Shown piece by piece: positions 7,143-60,092 of a stretch of 64,000 nucleotides of DNA (position 1 is the stretch's first letter; each line of letters begins with the position of its first letter). The notes under the pieces were generated by a model. It was not told where the DNA came from, did not search any database, and saw only the letters and a list, made by a program, of their open reading frames with translations. Position numbers and translations under genes: made by a program. Source of the stretch: Escherichia phage vB_EcoM_VR26; the sequence record NC_028957.1; one strand, written 5' to 3'.

Positions 7143-7184
7143 AATTTTCTCTCTTGGTTAATAAGTTTATTCTCCAGTGGGACC

Positions 7185-7213
7185 ATTATACTCTGGCCCC
7201 AAGAGTTTGTACA
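7185..7213 (-). promoter_or_regulatory. early promoter (TGTACA, 17 nt, TATAAT)
   Basis: Perfect TATAAT at 7185-7190; GTGTACA at 7208-7213; upstream of 6651..7142. Confidence 0.55.
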
Positions 7214-12358: not shown

Positions 12359-12387
12359 ATCTTAACATGTCTTATTATTCTTGTACA
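12359..12387 (-). promoter_or_regulatory. early promoter (TGTACA, 17 nt, TAAGAT) with ATCAACTACTGATGAGG leader
   Basis: Inside 3' end of 12375..12932; drives 11713..12327. Confidence 0.45.
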
Positions 12388-12932
12388 CAGTCAAGAACAT
12401 AATAATCACCAACAAATCCAGCATCAACTATCACGAATTTCTGGTCAACTGGAACAAACCATTCAAGCTCAGAATCAATCATGTCCATATATTCTTCACG
12501 CCTTAACGTTGCTGCCTGTGCGGAACCAGATGCAGTATTGAAGAATTCCAGCGGAACGTCAAGCGCGAGCTTACGCATCGCATCATGATAACAAAAAGCC
12601 TCGGTCTGATTTAATCTGACAATAGTCCTTGTCACATATTCCATTGCAGCAAAATCCCTGGCAATACCATAGTCTTCTGTAAAGGAAGTTATTCTTCCAA
12701 ATTCAAAAGGTTGCATTAATTCTTTTGCTTCATCTAACAACTCAATCTCTTGATGGGTAACCCCGCGATACAAGACTGTATCAGGTACAGATAACCTTGA
12801 CTTGATGATTGAGTTGACGTTTGAATGCAAGGTTTTGTCAACCTTTGATGTGCGACATTCAAACAATGAAGCTATCTCCATTTCGCTAAATTTTAACTGG
12901 TTGGGTTCGGTATCAGATTTGATGATGTTCAT
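12375..12932 (-). CDS. ADP-ribosyltransferase (ModA/ModB family)
   Basis: 185 aa; LYRGV, SFTEDYGIARDF and EEYMD motifs; paralogous to 11713..12327. Confidence 0.7.
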   Translation of the reverse strand: MNIIKSDTEPNQLKFSEMEIASLFECRTSKVDKTLHSNVNSIIKSRLSVPDTVLYRGVTHQEIELLDEAKELMQPFEFGRITSFTEDYGIARDFAAMEYVTRTIVRLNQTEAFCYHDAMRKLALDVPLEFFNTASGSAQAATLRREEYMDMIDSELEWFVPVDQKFVIVDAGFVGDYYVLDCVQE

Positions 12933-12988
12933 AATGGCCTCTCTGTTGTAAGAAAGACCATTATGTCATTAGGAGGGGAGTAAGTAAA

Positions 12989-14833: not shown

Positions 14834-15067
14834 TTAAACAATAGCAGTCGGCGTAAACATTGCCTCGTTTTTGGTCTTCCAGTCAGCAGCATCAGTGACC
14901 ACAGTTGAGTAGGCCGCTACCGCCGAAGGGAAAGTCTGATAATGAGCATTAGCAATACGATGCGCATTAGAATAGATTTCAAACGGAACTGAAACCTCGG
15001 TACCTTTAACTTCTTTACCTTCACCAGCTGCATGCGTAAAGGTTTTGATATTAACGAAACCACCCAT
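14834..15067 (-). CDS. soc: small outer capsid protein Soc
   Basis: 77 aa; motifs VNIKTF and HYQTFPSAVAAYSTV match recalled T4 Soc; TATAAATA late promoter 30 nt upstream. Confidence 0.85.
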   Translation of the reverse strand: MGGFVNIKTFTHAAGEGKEVKGTEVSVPFEIYSNAHRIANAHYQTFPSAVAAYSTVVTDAADWKTKNEAMFTPTAIV

Positions 15068-20108: not shown

Positions 20109-20146
20109 ATTATACTATAAAGAAAAAGGGGTGTACACCCCTTTTA
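20109..20146 (-). promoter_or_regulatory. early promoter whose -35 TGTACA lies in terminator palindrome GGGGTGTACACCCC
   Basis: TATAAT 20109-20114; TGTACA 20132-20137; palindrome 20128-20141 followed by U-run. Confidence 0.5.
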
Positions 20147-29473: not shown

Positions 29474-30169
29474 TTAATCTTGGAATTCGTGGCTAGAGCC
29501 TTGTTCCATTGCAATCACATAACTTGCTTGTGTGCCTTCAAACTTCGTAGCAAATTTATCATCTTTCGCCCAAAGCATAACACGGTAATCAGCCGGAATC
29601 ATTTTCATGTTCAGTTTGTTAATGATAAATTTAAACGCTGCATCGCCTTCGTAATCACCACACACTAGGGAATACAATGGGCGCGCTAATTCTTTATCTT
29701 CGAGCTGGTTATAACCATGGATAACAATCTTACCATCTTTGTTGGTGATAGCAAAAGTATCCAGAGACAAACCGCCAGCCACACGCAGAAGCTGCTGCAG
29801 GTCACTACCTTTCAGGTCAAAGATAACCTTAGCTACCGGGAAAGGAATCTTCTTAGCAGGGAACACGATAGTGCTCGGGTCAGCTGCAGGCCAGTGAATC
29901 GTTGAACGTTGGTCTTTGATAATGATGTTTGATGCATCTTCAGCCAGAGATACTTCAGCTTGGTCAGTTACCAGGCCCAGGATACTTAAGAAGCCGTTCA
30001 GGTCATAAATTGCAGCTTCAAAGTCAATTGTATCATTGATTTCAGATTCACCATATGACGCTCCAGTTACGGAACGAGTCAGGATGGTATTACCTGGTTT
30101 AAGCATAATGCCAGAGTAGATGGAGGTGAAGTTTTTCAGAACTGCGATGGTGTCACGACTAAATTTCAT
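29474..30169 (-). CDS. 45: sliding clamp
   Basis: 231 aa; collinear with recalled T4 gp45. Confidence 0.9.
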   Translation of the reverse strand: MKFSRDTIAVLKNFTSIYSGIMLKPGNTILTRSVTGASYGESEINDTIDFEAAIYDLNGFLSILGLVTDQAEVSLAEDASNIIIKDQRSTIHWPAADPSTIVFPAKKIPFPVAKVIFDLKGSDLQQLLRVAGGLSLDTFAITNKDGKIVIHGYNQLEDKELARPLYSLVCGDYEGDAAFKFIINKLNMKMIPADYRVMLWAKDDKFATKFEGTQASYVIAMEQGSSHEFQD

Positions 30170-35472: not shown

Positions 35473-35724
35473 TTAATCCTTGGGAGTTAACTCAATTGTA
35501 AAATATAGATTAGCATTATCCACATGATAACGGTAATCAACGTTATTATCCGGTGAAGTAAATTCCAGATTCCGGACGTTTAAAGGGTCGATATCAATTG
35601 GAAGACCTTTTATGTCTCGCAGATAAAGTTTAATGAAATATGGGAGCGCTGTAAAGTCTTCCTCGATTTTATCTAAAAAATCGGTAATATCAAATTGATG
35701 TTCCATATAAAAAATCCAAATCAC
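35473..35724 (-). CDS. hypothetical protein
   Basis: 83-aa ORF. Confidence 0.4.
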
Positions 35725-36247
35725 CTTCTTTATCTTTGGCGCTCTTATCAGACCCTGGCGCTTTAACTAAGGAGGATTCGTACTGTGTCATTTTGTCATA
35801 GATGTCCTGGATAAATGTTTCGTCAGCCAGAGCCACCATATCGTCGTCACGTGAATCATACACGTTATGGACGAAGTAGCTATATTTCTTTGCCATTTCT
35901 TTACGTTCTTTTTTGATACGCTGAACGAAAGCATTGAAGCAAGCCATTGTTATGTAAGCATGTGGATTATCGTATTTTGTTTCGTCGAAGTTATGAAGAC
36001 CTTTTATTGCGGCCTCAATTCCGTCCGCTATCATTTCCTGCTTCCAAGATTGGGTATATCCTGAAAAGTTGAAACGTTTAGACAGACCTTCGGCTATAAG
36101 CATAATCGCCAGACCAATAACATCGTTCTGGCGAATAATTTTATTTGGGTCGGTATTTGCATTCAGCTTCTGTTTCCACTCCGAAATAGCTTTCAGAAGC
36201 TCTTTATTATTTACATAGTTATTCTTGGTTAATTTAATTTCGTTCAT
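35690..36247 (-). CDS. 55: late-transcription sigma factor
   Basis: 185 aa; long conserved block matches recalled T4 gp55. Confidence 0.88.
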
Positions 36248-37169: not shown

Positions 37170-37223
37170 TTAAATTAAAATTTTATTATCCTTGGGGTCA
37201 TTATACCATGACCCCGTTGGTTT

Positions 37224-39287: not shown

Positions 39288-39761
39288 TCATTTGAGCGAT
39301 TTCCTCAGTTGTTTTTTAAATGAAGCTTGTAGTTTAGGCTTCGTATCAGATTCATTATAAGTCATACCGTTCAAAAGCATTTCCTGAATCATTTCTTCTT
39401 TTCCCAGGCGACCAAACTCTTTGGCTTTGTCTGTCACAAAATTGGGGTGAATATTGTTTTCGGTATAATCAGATTTCAGATAGACAAGCAAACTCTCTAA
39501 CCATTCCAGGTAGTCAACATCGCGACCTTTCAGACCCGAGCGGCTGAACTTATGCTTCATTTGTCCTTCTGTTCCATTGCACAGATTGCATAGTAACCCA
39601 CGAACCTTACCGGCTTTTGGCCCGTTCAATTCGTGGTCATGGTCAAGATGGTTGGCCTGAACATCGGAGTCCAAATCACGGTGGCAAATTGGACACTTAC
39701 CAGCTTGTGCATCATAAAGTTTTTGTTTTTCTTCTTTGTATAATTTGCCAGTCAACAACAT
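39288..39761 (-). CDS. 49: recombination endonuclease VII
   Basis: 157 aa; nearly collinear with recalled T4 gp49, including HLDHDHELNGPKAGKVRGLLCNLCNG. Confidence 0.92.
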   Translation of the reverse strand: MLLTGKLYKEEKQKLYDAQAGKCPICHRDLDSDVQANHLDHDHELNGPKAGKVRGLLCNLCNGTEGQMKHKFSRSGLKGRDVDYLEWLESLLVYLKSDYTENNIHPNFVTDKAKEFGRLGKEEMIQEMLLNGMTYNESDTKPKLQASFKKQLRKSLK

Positions 39762-39972
39762 AATAAACCCTTACCATTATTAGATAAGGGTATTTATTAA
39801 ATATTATAGAACGAGCGATGCAACCGTTTAAATTGACGAATCATCTTTTTGGTAGGACGAGTATACAATCCCACACAGGTGGCCATAAACTGGTCAGTAG
39901 GACTTCCCTTGATAAAAAGTTTCCAGACCTTACCACCATTTAACTTTTCAGTATAGACTAATTCAGTTTTCA

Positions 39973-45596: not shown

Positions 45597-45637
45597 CAGT
45601 ATAGGAACATTATGTCACGCTCCCATACTGGTGTACA
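45597..45637 (-). promoter_or_regulatory. early promoter with 10-bp inverted repeat bracketing the -10
   Basis: TGTACA 45632-45637; -10 45609-45614; arms cagtatagga (45597-45606) and tcccatactg (45621-45630), one mismatch. Confidence 0.5.
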
Positions 45638-46184: not shown

Positions 46185-46225
46185 CAGTATGGGAACATTA
46201 TACGTCTATCCCATACTGATGTACA
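46185..46225 (-). promoter_or_regulatory. early promoter with perfect 10-bp inverted repeat bracketing the -10
   Basis: TGTACA 46220-46225; TATAAT 46197-46202; arms cagtatggga (46185-46194) and tcccatactg (46209-46218). Confidence 0.5.
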
Positions 46226-54145: not shown

Positions 54146-54604
54146 TTAGATATAAATCACTTTTGTGCTAATTTTTCCTTCCAGACGATTAGAGTTAACA
54201 AACGCCATACGACAACACATGGTTGGAGACTTCCCAGGAAGAGCTGGGTTAACTGTCATTCCTAACCATAAGTTCTTGTCTGTGATTTCCAGACGAAGTG
54301 GACGGTAGTTCACATTCGGGTCAATTTGTGCTTCAACTTCCGGGAGTGGTTTCATCTCCAGGAATTCAACAATTTCTTTTACATGTGGTGTGATTTTTCC
54401 AAACAAGTCAAAAACATATTGTTCGTCAATTTCACGTTGGATTGCACGGTCCAACAGGTGTGGACTGTACTTAATGAAGAATGCTTCAAGGCCTGCTTCT
54501 TTACAAGCCTTGTTGATAGCATTATTAATTTTGAGGAACTCCGTTTCAAAAATACGACGAAGTTTATTGCGGCGAATGTAAACACTTGAATCGATAGTAG
54601 TCAT
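54146..54604 (-). CDS. regB: endoribonuclease RegB
   Basis: True ATG at 54602-54604 (MTTIDSSVYIRRNKLRR) with AAGGAGA SD; collinear with recalled T4 RegB. Confidence 0.85.
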   Translation of the reverse strand: MTTIDSSVYIRRNKLRRIFETEFLKINNAINKACKEAGLEAFFIKYSPHLLDRAIQREIDEQYVFDLFGKITPHVKEIVEFLEMKPLPEVEAQIDPNVNYRPLRLEITDKNLWLGMTVNPALPGKSPTMCCRMAFVNSNRLEGKISTKVIYI

Positions 54605-54631
54605 GATTATCTCCTTTTGTTTGATGGGATA

Positions 54632-54660
54632 ATCATAACTCATTTCAACCTGCTTGTACA
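54632..54660 (-). promoter_or_regulatory. early promoter upstream of regB
   Basis: TGTACA 54655-54660, 17-nt spacer, TATGAT -10; leader with AAGGAGA SD. Confidence 0.45.
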
Positions 54661-55008
54661 CTATTCTTTAAAACGAATTAGCTTATTTAATGACTGTGAG
54701 ACTTCAGCACGAACAGCGTGTAAATTCTTAAGCTGTTCAAGGCGTTGCTCGTAGTAAGCAATTTCATCTTCTTCAAGACAGTCGTTTGAATCTTCTTTAA
54801 GATAGTTCCCGTAGTCCTGAAAGGCCTTACGAATAACTTCCTGGAAATCGTCTAGACTTTGAATTTTTGGCTGTTTCGGTGTGAATCCAAACGGATTGGA
54901 ATCATTTATGCGGCGATGAGAAGCGGTTGATAACTCATAACCAAAACCAGAATTAATCTGCGCCATTAGTATTTTTCCTCGGATCGAAATACTGCACGAC
55001 ATGCCCAC
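54661..55008 (-). CDS. hypothetical protein
   Basis: 115-aa ORF. Confidence 0.4.
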
Positions 55009-55286
55009 ATGCTGGCTTCTTTTAGATGTTGCTTAGCATACTTAAGAGCCTGCACTGCATCCATATCTTCTTTGGTTTGTTGCTCTGTTTCATTTTCTTT
55101 CAAGATATATGCTTCTTCAATCAGAGCATCAAACATCAATCCAAGACGGACTTCTGCATCTTTAATAGCGTTCACTTTACCGATTTTATCGTCGGTGTGC
55201 GGCTTGTAACCTTTGATATCTTCAATCATTTCACTTCCTCGCCAGTTGCGATATCGTATTCTACCAAACGAAGGCCATCGGTCCAA
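54966..55286 (-). CDS. hypothetical protein
   Basis: 106-aa ORF; start uncertain. Confidence 0.35.
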
Positions 55287-55459
55287 CCCTGAACGGAGAT
55301 ATAAGTGCTAGGATAAACCAGTTCTTTACCGTTCCACTGACCACCGTCCCAAACTTCCAGAAAGTCTTGTTCACCCGGACCATTAAACCATTCAACGAAT
55401 CTTTTCAAGGCTGCATCAGAGCCTTCAATCGTCAGTTTAGACATATTTTTTCCAGTCAC
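55226..55459 (-). CDS. hypothetical small protein
   Basis: 77-aa ORF. Confidence 0.35.
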   Translation of the reverse strand: MTGKNMSKLTIEGSDAALKRFVEWFNGPGEQDFLEVWDGGQWNGKELVYPSTYISVQGWTDGLRLVEYDIATGEEVK

Positions 55460-55733
55460 TAATTAATCGCACATCCTGGTCATACGTCAGGAGGCTACGA
55501 GTTATAATACCCTTACATGGTCCAGAAATAAATTCCAGAGTAAAGTAAGGAACCAACTTCATCAAGCGAATACTCGGAGCAGTGCAACGAAATCTGGACC
55601 CAATAAAAGGTCCAGACAAAAACACGTACTCAAAGAAATTTGCTTTATTAAAGATTTCAAAATTCTTTACGAAATCTTCAGACCTAACCTTTGGAATAAA
55701 ATAGATTTGGTCAAAAAGCTCTTCATGAGTCAT
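55437..55733 (-). CDS. hypothetical protein
   Basis: 98-aa ORF. Confidence 0.4.
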   Translation of the reverse strand: MTHEELFDQIYFIPKVRSEDFVKNFEIFNKANFFEYVFLSGPFIGSRFRCTAPSIRLMKLVPYFTLEFISGPCKGIITRSLLTYDQDVRLISDWKKYV

Positions 55734-56260
55734 TATTGCATTCCTATCACAAAGAATAGCGGTAAAGGCTTAGCGCCTTGACACATAAATTTATTCATCA
55801 TTACCTGATAAGCTTCATAGAACTTATCCATCGCTGGAAGTCGCATGGGCTCTTCGATAATAATCAATAATCGAGTAACAGATAATCCACGATACTTATG
55901 GAAGTTATCTTCGTCTAAAAATGAACGAACGGTATCATAGGCGATAAATCCAGGGCGTTCTACTTGAAGATGTGGTTGTGCCTTAGAAACCTGTTTTATT
56001 ACATTACAGATTTCTCGTGAGCGATGTGAAGAACTCGACATAACAATCACATCATTACCCTTAGAAACCCAATCTGCTGCAAACTGCGCAAGGGCACTTG
56101 TTTTACCTGTTTGACGACCACCGTCAAGTCGAAGAGTACCAAACTCTTGCATTCTTGAAGCAGGTTCATACCAGGTGTATTGGTCTGAATCTAAGCGTTC
56201 AATGGCGCGTTCAGCGAAGGCGTGCATTAAGGTTAGATAAATTGGAGTTAAAAATTTCAT
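55733..56260 (-). CDS. P-loop NTPase-like protein
   Basis: 175 aa; Walker A-like GGRQTGKTSAL; hydrophobic IIIEEP resembling Walker B. Confidence 0.45.
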   Translation of the reverse strand: MKFLTPIYLTLMHAFAERAIERLDSDQYTWYEPASRMQEFGTLRLDGGRQTGKTSALAQFAADWVSKGNDVIVMSSSSHRSREICNVIKQVSKAQPHLQVERPGFIAYDTVRSFLDEDNFHKYRGLSVTRLLIIIEEPMRLPAMDKFYEAYQVMMNKFMCQGAKPLPLFFVIGMQ

Positions 56261-56421
56261 AGTTGTCTCTTAGTTGTAGGGCCATTCCTTGGCACATTAA
56301 TTCGTCCATGTATCCGAATGTAAACCCCTTACCGCACTCGGGCTCGACCTTATTACAGGTAGGGAAAGGTCCATCACTCAGAGGACACGACGTTCATGAG
56401 GAGAGGGTCGGTTTGCCTTTA

Positions 56422-56724
56422 TTAAAAAGAACCAGAGCCTTTAATTGTGTTCTGGCGACCTTTATTTTCTACTTCAGAATGGTCGATTTCGTATGCTTGT
56501 GCTACGCCAAAGGCCTTTTTAACTTTAGCTAAAGAACCTTTAGATGTAACAATATTAAAAGTATTGCCTTTGGTAAAATCAACCAAATCCACTTGCACCC
56601 CTTGTTTACCGAGGCTTGCTACAATAGCATCAACATATTGTTGGTCTAAATTGCCTTGAACCCCAATTTGAAATGCTTTAGGAACTTTAGCAGATTCAGT
56701 AATAAATTCTTGATATGTTTTCAT
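56422..56724 (-). CDS. capsid internal protein (IP family)
   Basis: 100 aa; N-terminal capsid-targeting sequence MKTYQEFITES. Confidence 0.7.
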   Translation of the reverse strand: MKTYQEFITESAKVPKAFQIGVQGNLDQQYVDAIVASLGKQGVQVDLVDFTKGNTFNIVTSKGSLAKVKKAFGVAQAYEIDHSEVENKGRQNTIKGSGSF

Positions 56725-56737
56725 ATTGTTTCTTTAA

Positions 56738-57052
56738 TTAAGCTTTAGGGAAATCGCGCAAAAACGCATCATAAAGTTTATTACCAATGCGACGGAATGC
56801 TTTTGCCGCATGAACGTTATCTGGGTTTGCAATTTTAATCTGCATTACATGACTACCAGCCCATGATTTAGCTTCGTCATAATAACCTTTAATTTCTTTA
56901 ATAGTCTTGCGTTTTCCACCAGGACCATCGACAGTAATTTTCCACGAACCAGTGCTTGTTTCACTTGGTGGGGTTAACTGTTCAATCCAGACATAACCAC
57001 CTTCAACACGTTGTTGAGTAGATTCAGTAATAAATTCTTGATAAGTTTTCAT
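56738..57052 (-). CDS. capsid internal protein (IP family)
   Basis: Starts at internal ATG 57050-57052 giving MKTYQEFITES; track N-terminal 13 residues are leader. Confidence 0.7.
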   Translation of the reverse strand: MKTYQEFITESTQQRVEGGYVWIEQLTPPSETSTGSWKITVDGPGGKRKTIKEIKGYYDEAKSWAGSHVMQIKIANPDNVHAAKAFRRIGNKLYDAFLRDFPKA

Positions 57053-57100
57053 TTTATATTCCATTGTTTGGTTGATAAAATCATTATACAACCTTTTTAG

Positions 57101-57517
57101 TTAAGCGTACACAGCTTTCCCATAGTATTTGTACCAGGTAGGCTTTTGAGAAATTTTCTCATTCAGTCTGGATTGACTGATTTCAATTGACCAGATTGAT
57201 GGTTGATAATCATTCTTCCATTCATCAGGAATATCATTTAAATCTTGGGTAGAAATATCTTTTATATTAAACCCTCGCTTTAAACATTCAGCAATAAGTT
57301 CTTGATGACGGTTTTTAAGGAACAAAAGCTTATCATAAAAGAAGGTGACATGACCAGTTCCTAAAAGAAAAGATGATGGGATTTTAAAGTCAGACACCTT
57401 TTTACCATTTTGCACATGCTTACGAACAGCACCAAACACGCGAGGAAGCTCACGATATTCAGCCATAAGGTGTTGGTCGGCAAGTTCAGATACCAGGGTT
57501 AAATTAATGCGAGTCAT
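57101..57517 (-). CDS. denV: endonuclease V (pyrimidine-dimer DNA glycosylase)
   Basis: 138 aa, near-identical to recalled T4 DenV. Confidence 0.92.
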
Positions 57518-57572
57518 GTTTGTTCTCCGTAGTTGATAGGGTCATTATAACCCTATCGTTTGGAGATGTAAA

Positions 57573-58061
57573 CTAATAAGCGTCAAAAGTTCCAGTACGG
57601 AAAGTTTCAATAACTCGTTTGGCCCGGTTTGGAGTCTGGACTTTATACCATCTTGAGTCAGCCAGTTCCTTAGCAGCAGCTTCCCATGATTTAGCCTTGA
57701 GCAATCGCAGCCCCTTAGGAAAACCAGCAACACCAGCTACACCCATTTGGAATACCATATTAATGAGTGCACAACGACGAACTTCATCCAGTACATCATA
57801 AACAGGCTTTAAGACAGGATGTTTCAAGATTCCGGCTTTAGCTTTTTCGACCGAACGGTTAAACAATGTTTCGGCTTCGTGCTGGGTTATACGACCATTA
57901 CAGATACGACCCATGAGCTTGTCGAGCTCAGCACGAGCAACATCTTTCGATGGGTTCTTAGTTATCAATTGCCCGATACCAATGGTCCAATAACCTTCGG
58001 TATCTTTATACAAATCCAACTTACAACCTTCATCTATGCGTAACATTTCGAATATATTCAT
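57573..58061 (-). CDS. e: lysozyme (endolysin)
   Basis: 162 aa; [12 protein letters not shown], catalytic E11/D20/T26 context and [12 protein letters not shown] match recalled T4 lysozyme. Confidence 0.92.
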
Positions 58062-58085
58062 AATACCCCCTTATATAGGGGTATT
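58062..58085 (-). promoter_or_regulatory. RNA hairpin sequestering the lysozyme (e) ribosome-binding site
   Basis: 8-bp stem aatacccc/ggggtatt with 8-nt loop ending exactly at the e ATG; the SD-like AAGGGGG lies within the stem. Confidence 0.5.
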
Positions 58086-58087
58086 TA

Positions 58088-58549
58088 TTATCCGAAAATT
58101 TGAGTCAAAACCTTGTACATCGATTTACCCATTACGTATTGCCATTGACTCGGTTTAATCAGAGCAAATGCATCAAACTCTGGGACCAAACTACCATCCG
58201 GGAATGTATGATATGCGGAGCATTTACTATGTCTGAATTGCTCATGCTCGACCGGGACCGTGTACAAAAACAGGTGAAGGTTTTTGTTATCTGAATAACG
58301 GAACTCGCCTAGGTCTTTTAAGAATGCCGGGTCATACTGGGTAAAGCCTGTTTCTTCTTCGCATTCACGTATAGCCGCTTCAATCGGGGATTCACCGGCT
58401 TCAACATGACCCTTAGGGATATCCCATTTATGTGCAGGCATACCCGGTTTGCGAGAACCAGTCACGCGACCCATGAATAGCTCTTTATCTTCAGTCATGA
58501 AAATAATACCAGCAGATAATTCTTTCACCACGTTTTTCTTACTCATCAT
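58088..58549 (-). CDS. nudE: Nudix hydrolase
   Basis: Nudix box GHVEAGESPIEAAIRECEEETG; likely start MMSKKN at 58547-58549 (153 aa). Confidence 0.8.
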   Translation of the reverse strand: MMSKKNVVKELSAGIIFMTEDKELFMGRVTGSRKPGMPAHKWDIPKGHVEAGESPIEAAIRECEEETGFTQYDPAFLKDLGEFRYSDNKNLHLFLYTVPVEHEQFRHSKCSAYHTFPDGSLVPEFDAFALIKPSQWQYVMGKSMYKVLTQIFG

Positions 58550-58775
58550 CACGTTCCCACGATTTTTTAAAGATTTCAGCCATAATAATTTCAATACGTG
58601 TTTCTGTTGATGGCGATTCACTACTAGAAGTTTGAACTCTGTATTCAGAAATCGGGCGGAACAAGTCCAGGTCAATTTCTAAATCATCTTTGATTTCAAC
58701 TTCGGGCGTACCTTTATCATAGGAATACAGGTAAGAATCACATGACTCTGATTTAATATAAATTGCAATACTCAT
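58539..58775 (-). CDS. hypothetical acidic small protein
   Basis: 78-aa ORF. Confidence 0.4.
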   Translation of the reverse strand: MSIAIYIKSESCDSYLYSYDKGTPEVEIKDDLEIDLDLFRPISEYRVQTSSSESPSTETRIEIIMAEIFKKSWERDDE

Positions 58776-59353
58776 TTACGGCATTCCTCAATAAAAGAGT
58801 TTAATGTATTTTTCTTTGTAACATCATCATATACCTTTTTAACTTTAGAAATACGAAAAGGTACTTCAATAACAGAGGTCCATAAAAATGATGCGATAAG
58901 TCCTGAGATAGCCGCAGACATAGCTGACGCGAATACAGAAATAGGCAGGTCATTATCTGTTGTCAGGAAAAAACCCAGGATTGGAAAAAACAGTATCCCC
59001 ATCCAAACATAGAACCTGGAGCACACCAACTTGTCATATTCATCGCTCCATGTACGAAAACCATATTTTTCACTATAACAAATCAATGGGTCAGGTGTTT
59101 GTTCTTTATGCGGTTCTGGTTGCCAACCTTTAACGATGTGCTTCATTTTATATTCCTCAATTAAAAGCTCTTTCATATGCCGGTTACAATGCGACCAATC
59201 AACGTTTTCCACCTTGATTCCTTCATCACCATCATCAAGGTTTGCCCAATATCTTTTGGTAATCATAAATTCATCTCTTGGAACTGGAATACCTGCACAT
59301 CCTTGTGGACCTTTCATATCACCCATGCAACCGGGTTCATACATCATTACCAT
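58772..59353 (-). CDS. membrane protein with C-terminal FIEECRK tail
   Basis: 193 aa; hydrophobic segments; C-terminal tail resembles 63255..63608 and 63595..63978. Confidence 0.45.
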   Translation of the reverse strand: MVMMYEPGCMGDMKGPQGCAGIPVPRDEFMITKRYWANLDDGDEGIKVENVDWSHCNRHMKELLIEEYKMKHIVKGWQPEPHKEQTPDPLICYSEKYGFRTWSDEYDKLVCSRFYVWMGILFFPILGFFLTTDNDLPISVFASAMSAAISGLIASFLWTSVIEVPFRISKVKKVYDDVTKKNTLNSFIEECRK

Positions 59354-60033
59354 CCCTCCATAGGGAATTCTAGATATACTTGGGCATTAACGCGGATTTC
59401 ATTGGTAATATTTTTAACACGGTCAGTGTTACGAGATACACGACCAAACCAACGCCAGCCATTGCGCACTGTCTGGGAACCAGTATGCCAGGTATGACAA
59501 TTAAACTGCAGGAGTGTGCGGTCAGGAGCTTCCCATTGCTCTAATTCACCTGATTCAATTTTAGTCAGAACTTCTTTATGCCATTGGCGATAAATCAATT
59601 CACCTTCCGGGATTTCACTAAAGGTAGCTTCGCCTGTAGCAAAATGGGTAGGACACACATCAGCGTTAACAAGACCAAGAATGTGTTCAGACATATAGCG
59701 AGGATTGTCATAATCTGGTTGACCCGCAGTAATAAAATGTTGTCCAGTTGGAATGGGTGGACGCGGAACATCATCATGATGATAGCCAGGGATAGCTGGA
59801 TACCAACCCGGCATTAACATATGCACACGTGAATCAAACACAACATGTTGATTAGTCCAATCAATTGGGAGATTGGCAATAAAGCTACGAGTGATTGGGC
59901 CACCATTATCCCAAGCAAAACTCAAATCACAGTTAAAGAACATTGGTTCATTTTTGATTTGGTCATTTTGTACGTTATGTGCAAAACCACCTACTGCACG
60001 AGCTTGACTATTAAAAGTTTTAGGACCGTTCAT
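59347..60033 (-). CDS. hypothetical protein
   Basis: 228 aa, His/Trp-rich; no recognised motif. Confidence 0.45.
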   Translation of the reverse strand: MNGPKTFNSQARAVGGFAHNVQNDQIKNEPMFFNCDLSFAWDNGGPITRSFIANLPIDWTNQHVVFDSRVHMLMPGWYPAIPGYHHDDVPRPPIPTGQHFITAGQPDYDNPRYMSEHILGLVNADVCPTHFATGEATFSEIPEGELIYRQWHKEVLTKIESGELEQWEAPDRTLLQFNCHTWHTGSQTVRNGWRWFGRVSRNTDRVKNITNEIRVNAQVYLEFPMEGW

Positions 60034-60092
60034 AATATTTTCCTCATTGATTGTGGGACCATTATGTCATAGCCCCATTTGGTTGTACACAC

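Follow-up and report, generated by a model that had tools for sequence, protein, structure and literature searches.

Does the short leader of the lysozyme gene in this phage keep the gene translationally silent on early transcripts and release it on late ones, as the leader of gene e does in T4? A preliminary description of the window, by which we mean the whole stretch of 64,000 nucleotides that was analysed, had raised this possibility from a hairpin next to the lysozyme start codon, stating that T4 gene e is reported to be silenced early by such a structure and activated when late transcripts start inside it. This statement on T4 agrees with section 29 of a review (PMC3014915): inhibitory structures are described there at the initiation regions of T4 e, soc, 49 and I-TevI, and long early transcripts that run into e form the structure and are translated poorly. 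The same section predicts leaders of this kind for related phages, in each case with the late promoter in the 5′ strand, and the conservation of the T4 e mechanism was reviewed in 2010 (PMC3014915 section 29, Fig. 5).

All genes around the e leader are oriented on the minus strand, with nudE upstream and denV downstream of e. The order nudE-e is the same in T4 and VR7, and e lies downstream of a same-strand prereplicative gene. The identity of e is clear: its product aligns with T4 lysozyme from the PDB over the full length (residues 1-162, E 4e-70), begins with an N-terminus, MNIFEML, that is identical in T4 lysozyme, and matches the Pfam family Phage_lysozyme (PF00959), and the orthologous gene in VR7, 98% identical in DNA, is annotated as e. 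The upstream gene ends in tandem stops (TAA at 58090..58088 and TAA at 58087..58085), and the gap of 26 nt between nudE and e is occupied by the hairpin, on the minus strand. Over 1.4 kb around the leader, the DNA shares 98% identity with Escherichia phage vB_EcoM_VR7 and 90-97% with other Gapriverviruses, e.g., SP18 and RZ, where the genes are annotated as nudE, e and denV. From this sequence identity and the annotation shared with VR7, SP18 and RZ we conclude that the window comes from a T4-like phage of the VR7/SP18 type (Gaprivervirus). It also encodes homologues of the late sigma factor gp55 and of the sliding clamp gp45, found with PHROGs after an NCBIfam search of the gp55, gp45, regB and mod candidates had given no match. 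The place that gp33 occupies in T4 falls outside the window. The coordinates of all features of the locus are collected in Table 1.

Table 1. Features of the e locus and of the late transcription genes; positions are those of the window.
Feature	Position	Strand	Basis
e, soluble lysozyme (endolysin), 162 aa, T4 lysozyme orthologue	57573..58061	-	ORF; PDB T4 lysozyme; Pfam PF00959; VR7 annotation
nudE (Nudix hydrolase), upstream of e	58088..58549	-	Pfam NUDIX 1.9e-16; VR7, RZ, SP18 annotation
AUG start of e, directly 3′ of stem	58059..58061	-	ORF, sequence
Hairpin 3′ arm GGGGGUAUU; Shine-Dalgarno UAAGGGGGU at 58073..58065	58062..58070	-	fold; SD:anti-SD duplex
Loop AUAUAA; 58076 = predicted late +1, 6th base past box	58071..58076	-	fold; box numbering -13..-6 (PMC2988020)
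Hairpin 5′ arm AAUACCCCU, with anti-SD-like CCCC	58077..58085	-	fold
Putative late-promoter box AATAAATA (T4 consensus TATAAATA with A at -13)	58082..58089	-	octamer search; T4 site list
Predicted outer helix, 5′ strand UUUCGGAUA, last nudE codons	58089..58097	-	MFE and centroid, 71-140 nt contexts
Predicted outer helix, 3′ strand UAUUCGAAA, e codons 3-6	58046..58054	-	predicted fold
64-nt substitution-free island, centred on leader	58039..58102	-	alignment, 10 Gaprivervirus genomes
gp55 late sigma homologue	35690..36247		PHROGs phrog_234, 3.7e-68
gp45 sliding clamp	29474..30169		PHROGs phrog_223, 3.1e-77

The leader RNA, read from the minus strand, is ggaUAAUAAAUACCCCUAUAUAAGGGGGUAUUAUG. RNAfold predicts a stem of 9 bp (58085..58077 with 58070..58062), in which AAUACCCC/GGGGUAUU make up eight Watson-Crick pairs and a U-G pair closes the loop; the 8-bp stem of the preliminary description is thus correct for the Watson-Crick pairs and becomes 9 bp once the closing U-G is counted. 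The start codon does follow immediately on the hairpin that holds the Shine-Dalgarno-like sequence, as had been claimed, since the 3′ arm ends at 58062 and the AUG occupies 58061..58059. The further claim, that the 3′ arm holds the only purine-rich stretch of this kind, is also borne out: UAAGGGGGU is the sole SD-like purine stretch in the 26-nt gap, and it forms nine pairs (one of them G-U) with the 3′ end of 16S rRNA at -12.7 kcal/mol, compared with -11.6 kcal/mol for T4 e. It is a true and strong Shine-Dalgarno sequence.

The hairpin has a folding energy of -13.1 kcal/mol over the 29 nt of the original observation, and -13 kcal/mol or better is reached by 0.4% of 32-nt segments of the same strand. 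In a 71-nt context the energy is -18.4 kcal/mol (z = -2.99), which one of 200 shuffles equalled. For the 31-nt leader alone the result of dinucleotide shuffling is marginal (z = -1.85, 8 of 200 as good), because the shuffles keep the C and G runs. A more direct measure of occlusion is the cost of unfolding the initiation region, defined as the ensemble free energy of forcing positions -13..+3 to be single-stranded. By this measure the stretch from SD to AUG ranks fourth of the 113 putative minus-strand gene starts, for which the median is 5.0 kcal/mol and the standard deviation 3.4. An Rfam scan of 56000..60000 with E up to 1 gave no covariance-model match. As to an intrinsic (rho-independent) terminator, only the plus-strand mirror image was flagged; there is no minus-strand call, because there is no U-run.

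A switch of the T4 kind needs a late promoter, an element that the preliminary description did not point out and that is present as AATAAATA. The T4 late promoter is an 8-bp box, TATAAATA, at -13 to -6, and 32 of the 50 listed T4 late sites match it perfectly, while nine have A at -13, which is the commonest variant (PMC2988020). Within the box lie the first four bases of the hairpin 5′ arm, and it also overlaps the nudE stop codon. Late transcription is predicted to start near 58076, at the first base of the loop, so that the late mRNA would lack the whole 5′ arm (nine of nine stem pairs absent) and would have a leader of 15 nt. As far as the sequence goes, the late promoter is therefore placed such that late RNA would start past the 5′ arm.

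The effect that this placement would have on initiation can be put in numbers. For e of the window, the unfolding cost is 14.8 kcal/mol on read-through (early) RNA and 2.5 kcal/mol on RNA from the predicted late +1; the corresponding values for T4 e, calculated for the upstream late promoter, are 16.2 and 3.9 kcal/mol, and the drop from early to late is 12.3 kcal/mol in both. The preliminary description had asked whether the predicted folding energy might be too weak to occlude the site, and because the unfolding cost matches that of T4, it is not. Across 27 distinct T4-type e contexts with the same box-plus-hairpin layout the early cost has a mean of 15.2 kcal/mol (range 12.1-18.7) and the late cost a mean of 5.0 kcal/mol, which equals the median gene start in the window.

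Two features of the promoter suggest that it might initiate late RNA weakly. Directly after AATAAATA come the bases CCCC, at a place where an A+T-rich segment is usual in T4 late promoters (PMC2988020), and a second late box is missing from the loop of the e hairpin, where TATATAAG matches at five of eight positions. Upstream, between 58.06 and 60.6 kb, there is no MotA-box middle promoter (TGCTTNA), so that read-through before the late phase would have to come from early promoters further upstream, e.g., the one in the stem-loop at 60084..60053.

We consider it likely that the e leader is a temporal translation switch of the T4 gene e type, with the late promoter in the hairpin, here in a Gaprivervirus genome. 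By analogy with T4 we infer early read-through, promoter activity of the box, the point at which late RNA starts and the consequence for translation, and the sequence of events would be as follows. Before late transcription, RNA from nudE and the genes upstream would run through the 26-nt gap into e. On this read-through RNA AAUACCCCU would pair with GGGGGUAUU, locking the SD in the 9-bp hairpin that abuts the AUG, and the predicted outer helix between the nudE 3′ end and e codons 3-6 would add to the locking. With the SD locked in the hairpin, we propose, the 30S subunit could not bind and lysozyme would not be made from early RNA. Activity of the late sigma factor (the gp55 homologue), together with gp33 and the gp45 clamp, would then direct RNA polymerase to AATAAATA (58089..58082), and transcription would begin about 6 nt beyond it, on the first base of the loop (~58076; template context AATAAATACCCC). 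Because the 15-nt leader of this late RNA would lack the 5′ arm, UAAGGGGGU would be free and e would be translated.

The same hairpin might instead act through the ribosomes that translate nudE. In such a scheme e would depend on ribosomes that finish nudE and open the stem, and this translational coupling would set a low ratio of e to NudE early; we think it improbable, though it is the best of the alternatives. The tandem stops TAATAA end 2 nt before the 5′ arm, or overlap it, while the T4 stop lies further away, by 8 nt, so that coupling is more favoured by the geometry of the window than by that of T4. The helicase activity of the ribosome unwinds mRNA about 4 nt ahead of the A-site codon. 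A ribosome terminating at the nudE stop, 2 nt from the stem, would thus open the outer pairs, and some coupling could occur early, but only about two A-U pairs would come apart, and the 7-bp GC-rich core that contains the SD would stay closed. Moreover, the invariant late box and the poor translation of T4 early RNA, as described in section 29 of PMC3014915, fit a promoter switch, and coupling does not account for an ATAAATA that is invariant also in leaders where it lies outside the stem.

The last point comes from a comparison of e loci taken from IMG/VR, metagenomes and GenBank phages, which yielded 19 distinct T4-type leaders, including the T4, JS98/JS10, VR5, CC31, Pectobacterium PM2, Serratia CHI14 and Salmonella STML-198 types. 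The suggestion that the T4 logic is conserved here despite divergence finds support in the alignment of the leader with that of T4 (UAUAAAUACCUUC..GGAGGUAUUAUG), which has the same box, arm positions and SD-AUG spacing. Throughout the set ATAAATAC is invariant (19/19), even where it is outside the stem, and a start 6 nt past the box strips between 5 and 12 stem pairs from every leader (19/19). The 18 leaders that were folded all have an SD-sequestering hairpin with the SD in the 3′ arm, with energies from -8.7 to -16.6 kcal/mol and z from -1.85 to -6.5. The registers of the stems differ: in T4, JS98 and the window the extension is on the outer side (AAUA with UAUU), whereas the PM2, CC31 and RB69-like groups have none there and extend inward instead (UAU with AUA). 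In these latter groups ATAAATA is unpaired yet invariant, which argues for a constraint from the promoter and not from the stem.

Among the 19 distinct leaders, the e late box has T at -13 in four, A in 11 and G in four. T at -13 is thus scarce in e leaders compared with the 32 of 50 T4 late sites that are perfect, and the preference for other bases may reflect selection for a weaker lysozyme promoter, or phylogenetic sampling.

The window clade also differs within the SD itself: a core of GGGGG replaces GGAGG, and C takes the place of U in the opposite arm; U-A is the pair found at this position in all 18 other leader types. As read from the alignment, the step from GGAGG to GGGGG with U to C opposite is a compensated change, and it is a single evolutionary event. 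A one-register covariance model of the 19 leaders, with 43 hits realigned, had 71% of cells paired and two pairs with double changes. Covariation in this fixed-register alignment of 43 hits was not significant, the score being reached by 128 of 500 shuffles, because the clades use different stem registers that the model does not shift. For this reason we rely on the folds of the individual sequences, and the comparative support is that SD pairing has repeatedly been kept by different means; it is not classical covariation. Within the window the leader model matched the e leader only and not gene 49, and a degenerate DNA pattern for the N-terminus, run against IMG/VR, as well as a scan of metagenomes, brought almost no new leader types.

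Against this background, two remaining explanations can be judged, both of which we regard as very improbable. The first takes the hairpin mainly as an attenuator or terminator, or as a stabiliser of the RNA 3′ end, for the early nudE unit, with occlusion of the SD as incidental. A stable GC-cored hairpin right after a stop codon would suit such a role, the tail UAUUAUGAAUAUAUU is fairly U-rich, and the palindrome scores as terminator-like on the plus strand. However, no plus-strand genes are present at the site to be terminated, several relatives have no U-rich tail (GGAGGUCCUAUG), and in every relative it is the 3′ arm that provides the following gene with its SD. The second, that the structure has no translational role and is a by-product of chance complementarity between promoter and SD or a PeSL-like recombination or module-junction cassette, appeals to the promoter-in-stem-loop cassettes common in the window and proposed to serve module shuffling (PMC2839356, PMC4122927), to the weakness of the formal covariation and to an invariant island that could mark a recombination junction, but it is hard to reconcile with clades that keep the SD paired by different extensions (outer AAUA/UAUU or inner UAU/AUA), with the compensation of GGAGG to GGGGG, with a site that is syntenic (nudE-e) and not mobile, and with the T4 experiments, summarized in section 29 of PMC3014915, in which the RNA structure forms and inhibits.

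The invariant island deserves separate treatment. In an alignment of 10 Gaprivervirus sequences over 1.4 kb, 388 of 1475 columns are variable (26%, or a mean of 10.8 per 40 columns), and all 40-column segments of this region with zero variable sites fall within 58102..58039. A single difference occurs in the island, a 1-nt loop insertion in TH54 that leaves the stem intact (-12.5 kcal/mol). In 27 GenBank records the 66 nt at 58040..58105 are 100% identical, with flanks that are 90-98% identical to the window. We count this pattern as support for purifying selection on the leader stretch, as far as an alignment can indicate it; alternatively, the island could be a fixed recombination junction. 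Since part of it is coding sequence, the conservation does not come from the hairpin alone.

The limits of the island coincide with those of the predicted outer helix, which has 9 bp and closes around the hairpin and the AUG; the hairpin itself persists in contexts of 71-140 nt. Covariation cannot be assessed for the outer helix because the segment is invariant in the clade. From the predicted folds one might propose that the switch of the VR7/SP18 clade is a larger, two-tier element within the island, in which an outer helix encloses the AUG around the SD hairpin, although we hold this to be rather unlikely. If it forms, the outer helix could be a clade-specific reinforcement of early silencing, and it may make up for the closeness of the nudE stop, at 2 nt from the stem, or for the lost stem extension in which the AUG of T4 is paired.

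The window as a whole shows how rare the promoter sequence is. There are two copies of AATAAATA in the 64 kb, the other being at 39798..39791, where a hairpin ahead of the endonuclease VII gene masks the SD in an analogous way. The octamer NATAAATA occurs 7 times against about 22.6 expected, and all but one of these occurrences are on the coding strand, ahead of gene starts, among them sites before soc (14834..15067) and before gene 49. Counting both strands of the window, TATAAATA is found 4 times (5.2 expected) and VATAAATA 3 times (17.5 expected). The depletion of NATAAATA suggests selection against spurious late promoters. On the minus strand of 55000..58100, the interval from the e leader to the internal head protein genes (ip10-like, 56738..57091; ip7-like, 56422..56724) contains neither a consensus late box nor one with A(-13), the sole candidate being TACAAATA at 57133..57126. 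With AATAAATA as the one good late box from 58.1 down to 55 kb, late mRNA for these downstream genes may come from it as well.

Several other hairpins of the window are of interest in their own right. Gene 49 (39288..39761, minus strand) has the same architecture at 39761..39798 (AATAAATACCCUUAucuaauaaugGUAAGGGUUUAUUAUG), where the 5′ arm includes the late box and the 3′ arm the SD; its leader hairpin is homologous to that of T4 gene 49, has a folding energy of -12.1 to -12.7 kcal/mol and an unfolding cost of 14.1 kcal/mol, and ranks 5 of 113. The start of the regB homologue (54146..54604, minus strand) is buried in a hairpin at 54604..54640 (gauuaucccaucaaacaaaaGGAGauaaucAUG) with an unfolding cost of 16.8 kcal/mol (rank 2 of 113), and its SD contains GGAG, the cleavage motif of RegB. 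The strongest occlusion of any gene start in the window, 18.8 kcal/mol, is found for a ModA/ModB-like ADP-ribosylase gene (12375..12932, minus strand), which has a hairpin of -15.4 kcal/mol at 12932..12963 (UAAUGGUCUUUCUuacaacAGAGAGGCCAUUAUG) and no late box nearby. PeSL-like stem-loops with a TATAAT-like -10 in the loop occur, all on the minus strand, at 57557..57526, 60084..60053, 46217..46186, 45629..45598, 37220..37189, 7208..7177 and ~20140..20110. The one at 57557..57526, just past the e stop, contains TTTACA-17-TATAAT (11 of 12 matches) and probably drives denV.

The same layout was seen at more distant lysozyme genes. At the distant lysozyme gene of Cronobacter phage S13 (contig L028, 1440..1500), UCUAAAUA lies within a 14-bp stem opposite GAGGAGG, at -24 kcal/mol. 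Three distant lysozyme contigs (L054, L070 and L051) have C/UAUAAAUA, a box of the NATAAATA type, in the 5′ arm, facing the SD; because sequenced phages include no close relative of these contigs, they are not counted as evidence.

The textbook device by which T4 delays lysozyme, a hairpin that masks the SD and carries a late promoter in its 5′ arm, would thus survive in a diverged genus. We found no published description of a VR7/SP18-type e leader, and the type is not named in section 29 of PMC3014915, so the switch appears not to have been described so far in this genus, while its basic arrangement is already well known from T4. What is new relative to T4 is the single late box, the shorter loop, the compensated GGGGG SD and, possibly, the extra outer helix. 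The arrangement can help to annotate late promoters and the timing of expression in T4-like phages used for therapy, and can serve as a natural example of compensatory mutation for teaching or reporter design. It opens no new question and is an ordinary relative of the T4 gene e arrangement.

Among the known systems, the promoter-early stem-loops (PeSLs) of T4-type phages also have a promoter element in a short, stable intergenic stem-loop, but the element is a sigma-70 -10 box (TATAAT) in the loop, and the downstream SD is not in the 3′ arm; they combine an early promoter or terminator with recombination motifs, and module shuffling has been proposed for them (PMC2839356, PMC4122927). Other known cases are gene 49 (endonuclease VII), soc and I-TevI of T4, where a late promoter in an SD-sequestering hairpin follows the same logic in different genes, according to section 29 of PMC3014915. 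The leader of T4 gene 49 reads AATAAATACCCUUA..UAAGGGUUUAUUAUG and contains the exact 11-mer AATAAATACCC of the e leader of the window; AATAAATACCC and ..UUAUUAUG are common to the e leader and the gene 49 leaders of both T4 and the window. Compared with the e leader, gene 49 has a weak SD (UAAGGG, duplex -5.0 kcal/mol) and a longer loop.

The closest relative is the e leader of T4, whose mechanism has been demonstrated experimentally, reportedly by McPheeters et al. in 1986 (Nucleic Acids Res 14:5813), whereas the leader of the window is known from sequence and folding. T4 has two TATAAATA boxes where the window has one AATAAATA, which sits at the place of the upstream T4 box, while the T4 loop promoter is absent. 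The loop is 8-12 nt in T4 and 6 nt in the window, the nudE stop is 8 nt from the stem in T4 and 2 nt in the window, and the T4 SD GGAGG faces CCUUC whereas the GGGGG of the window has its compensating CCCC. The AUG of T4 is paired in an extension of the stem; that of the window is unpaired there and enclosed by the predicted clade-specific outer helix. The two leaders are alike in other respects: both lie between nudE and e, and both have a NATAAATA box over the 5′ arm AAUACC..., the SD in the 3′ arm ...GGUAUU, and then the AUG.
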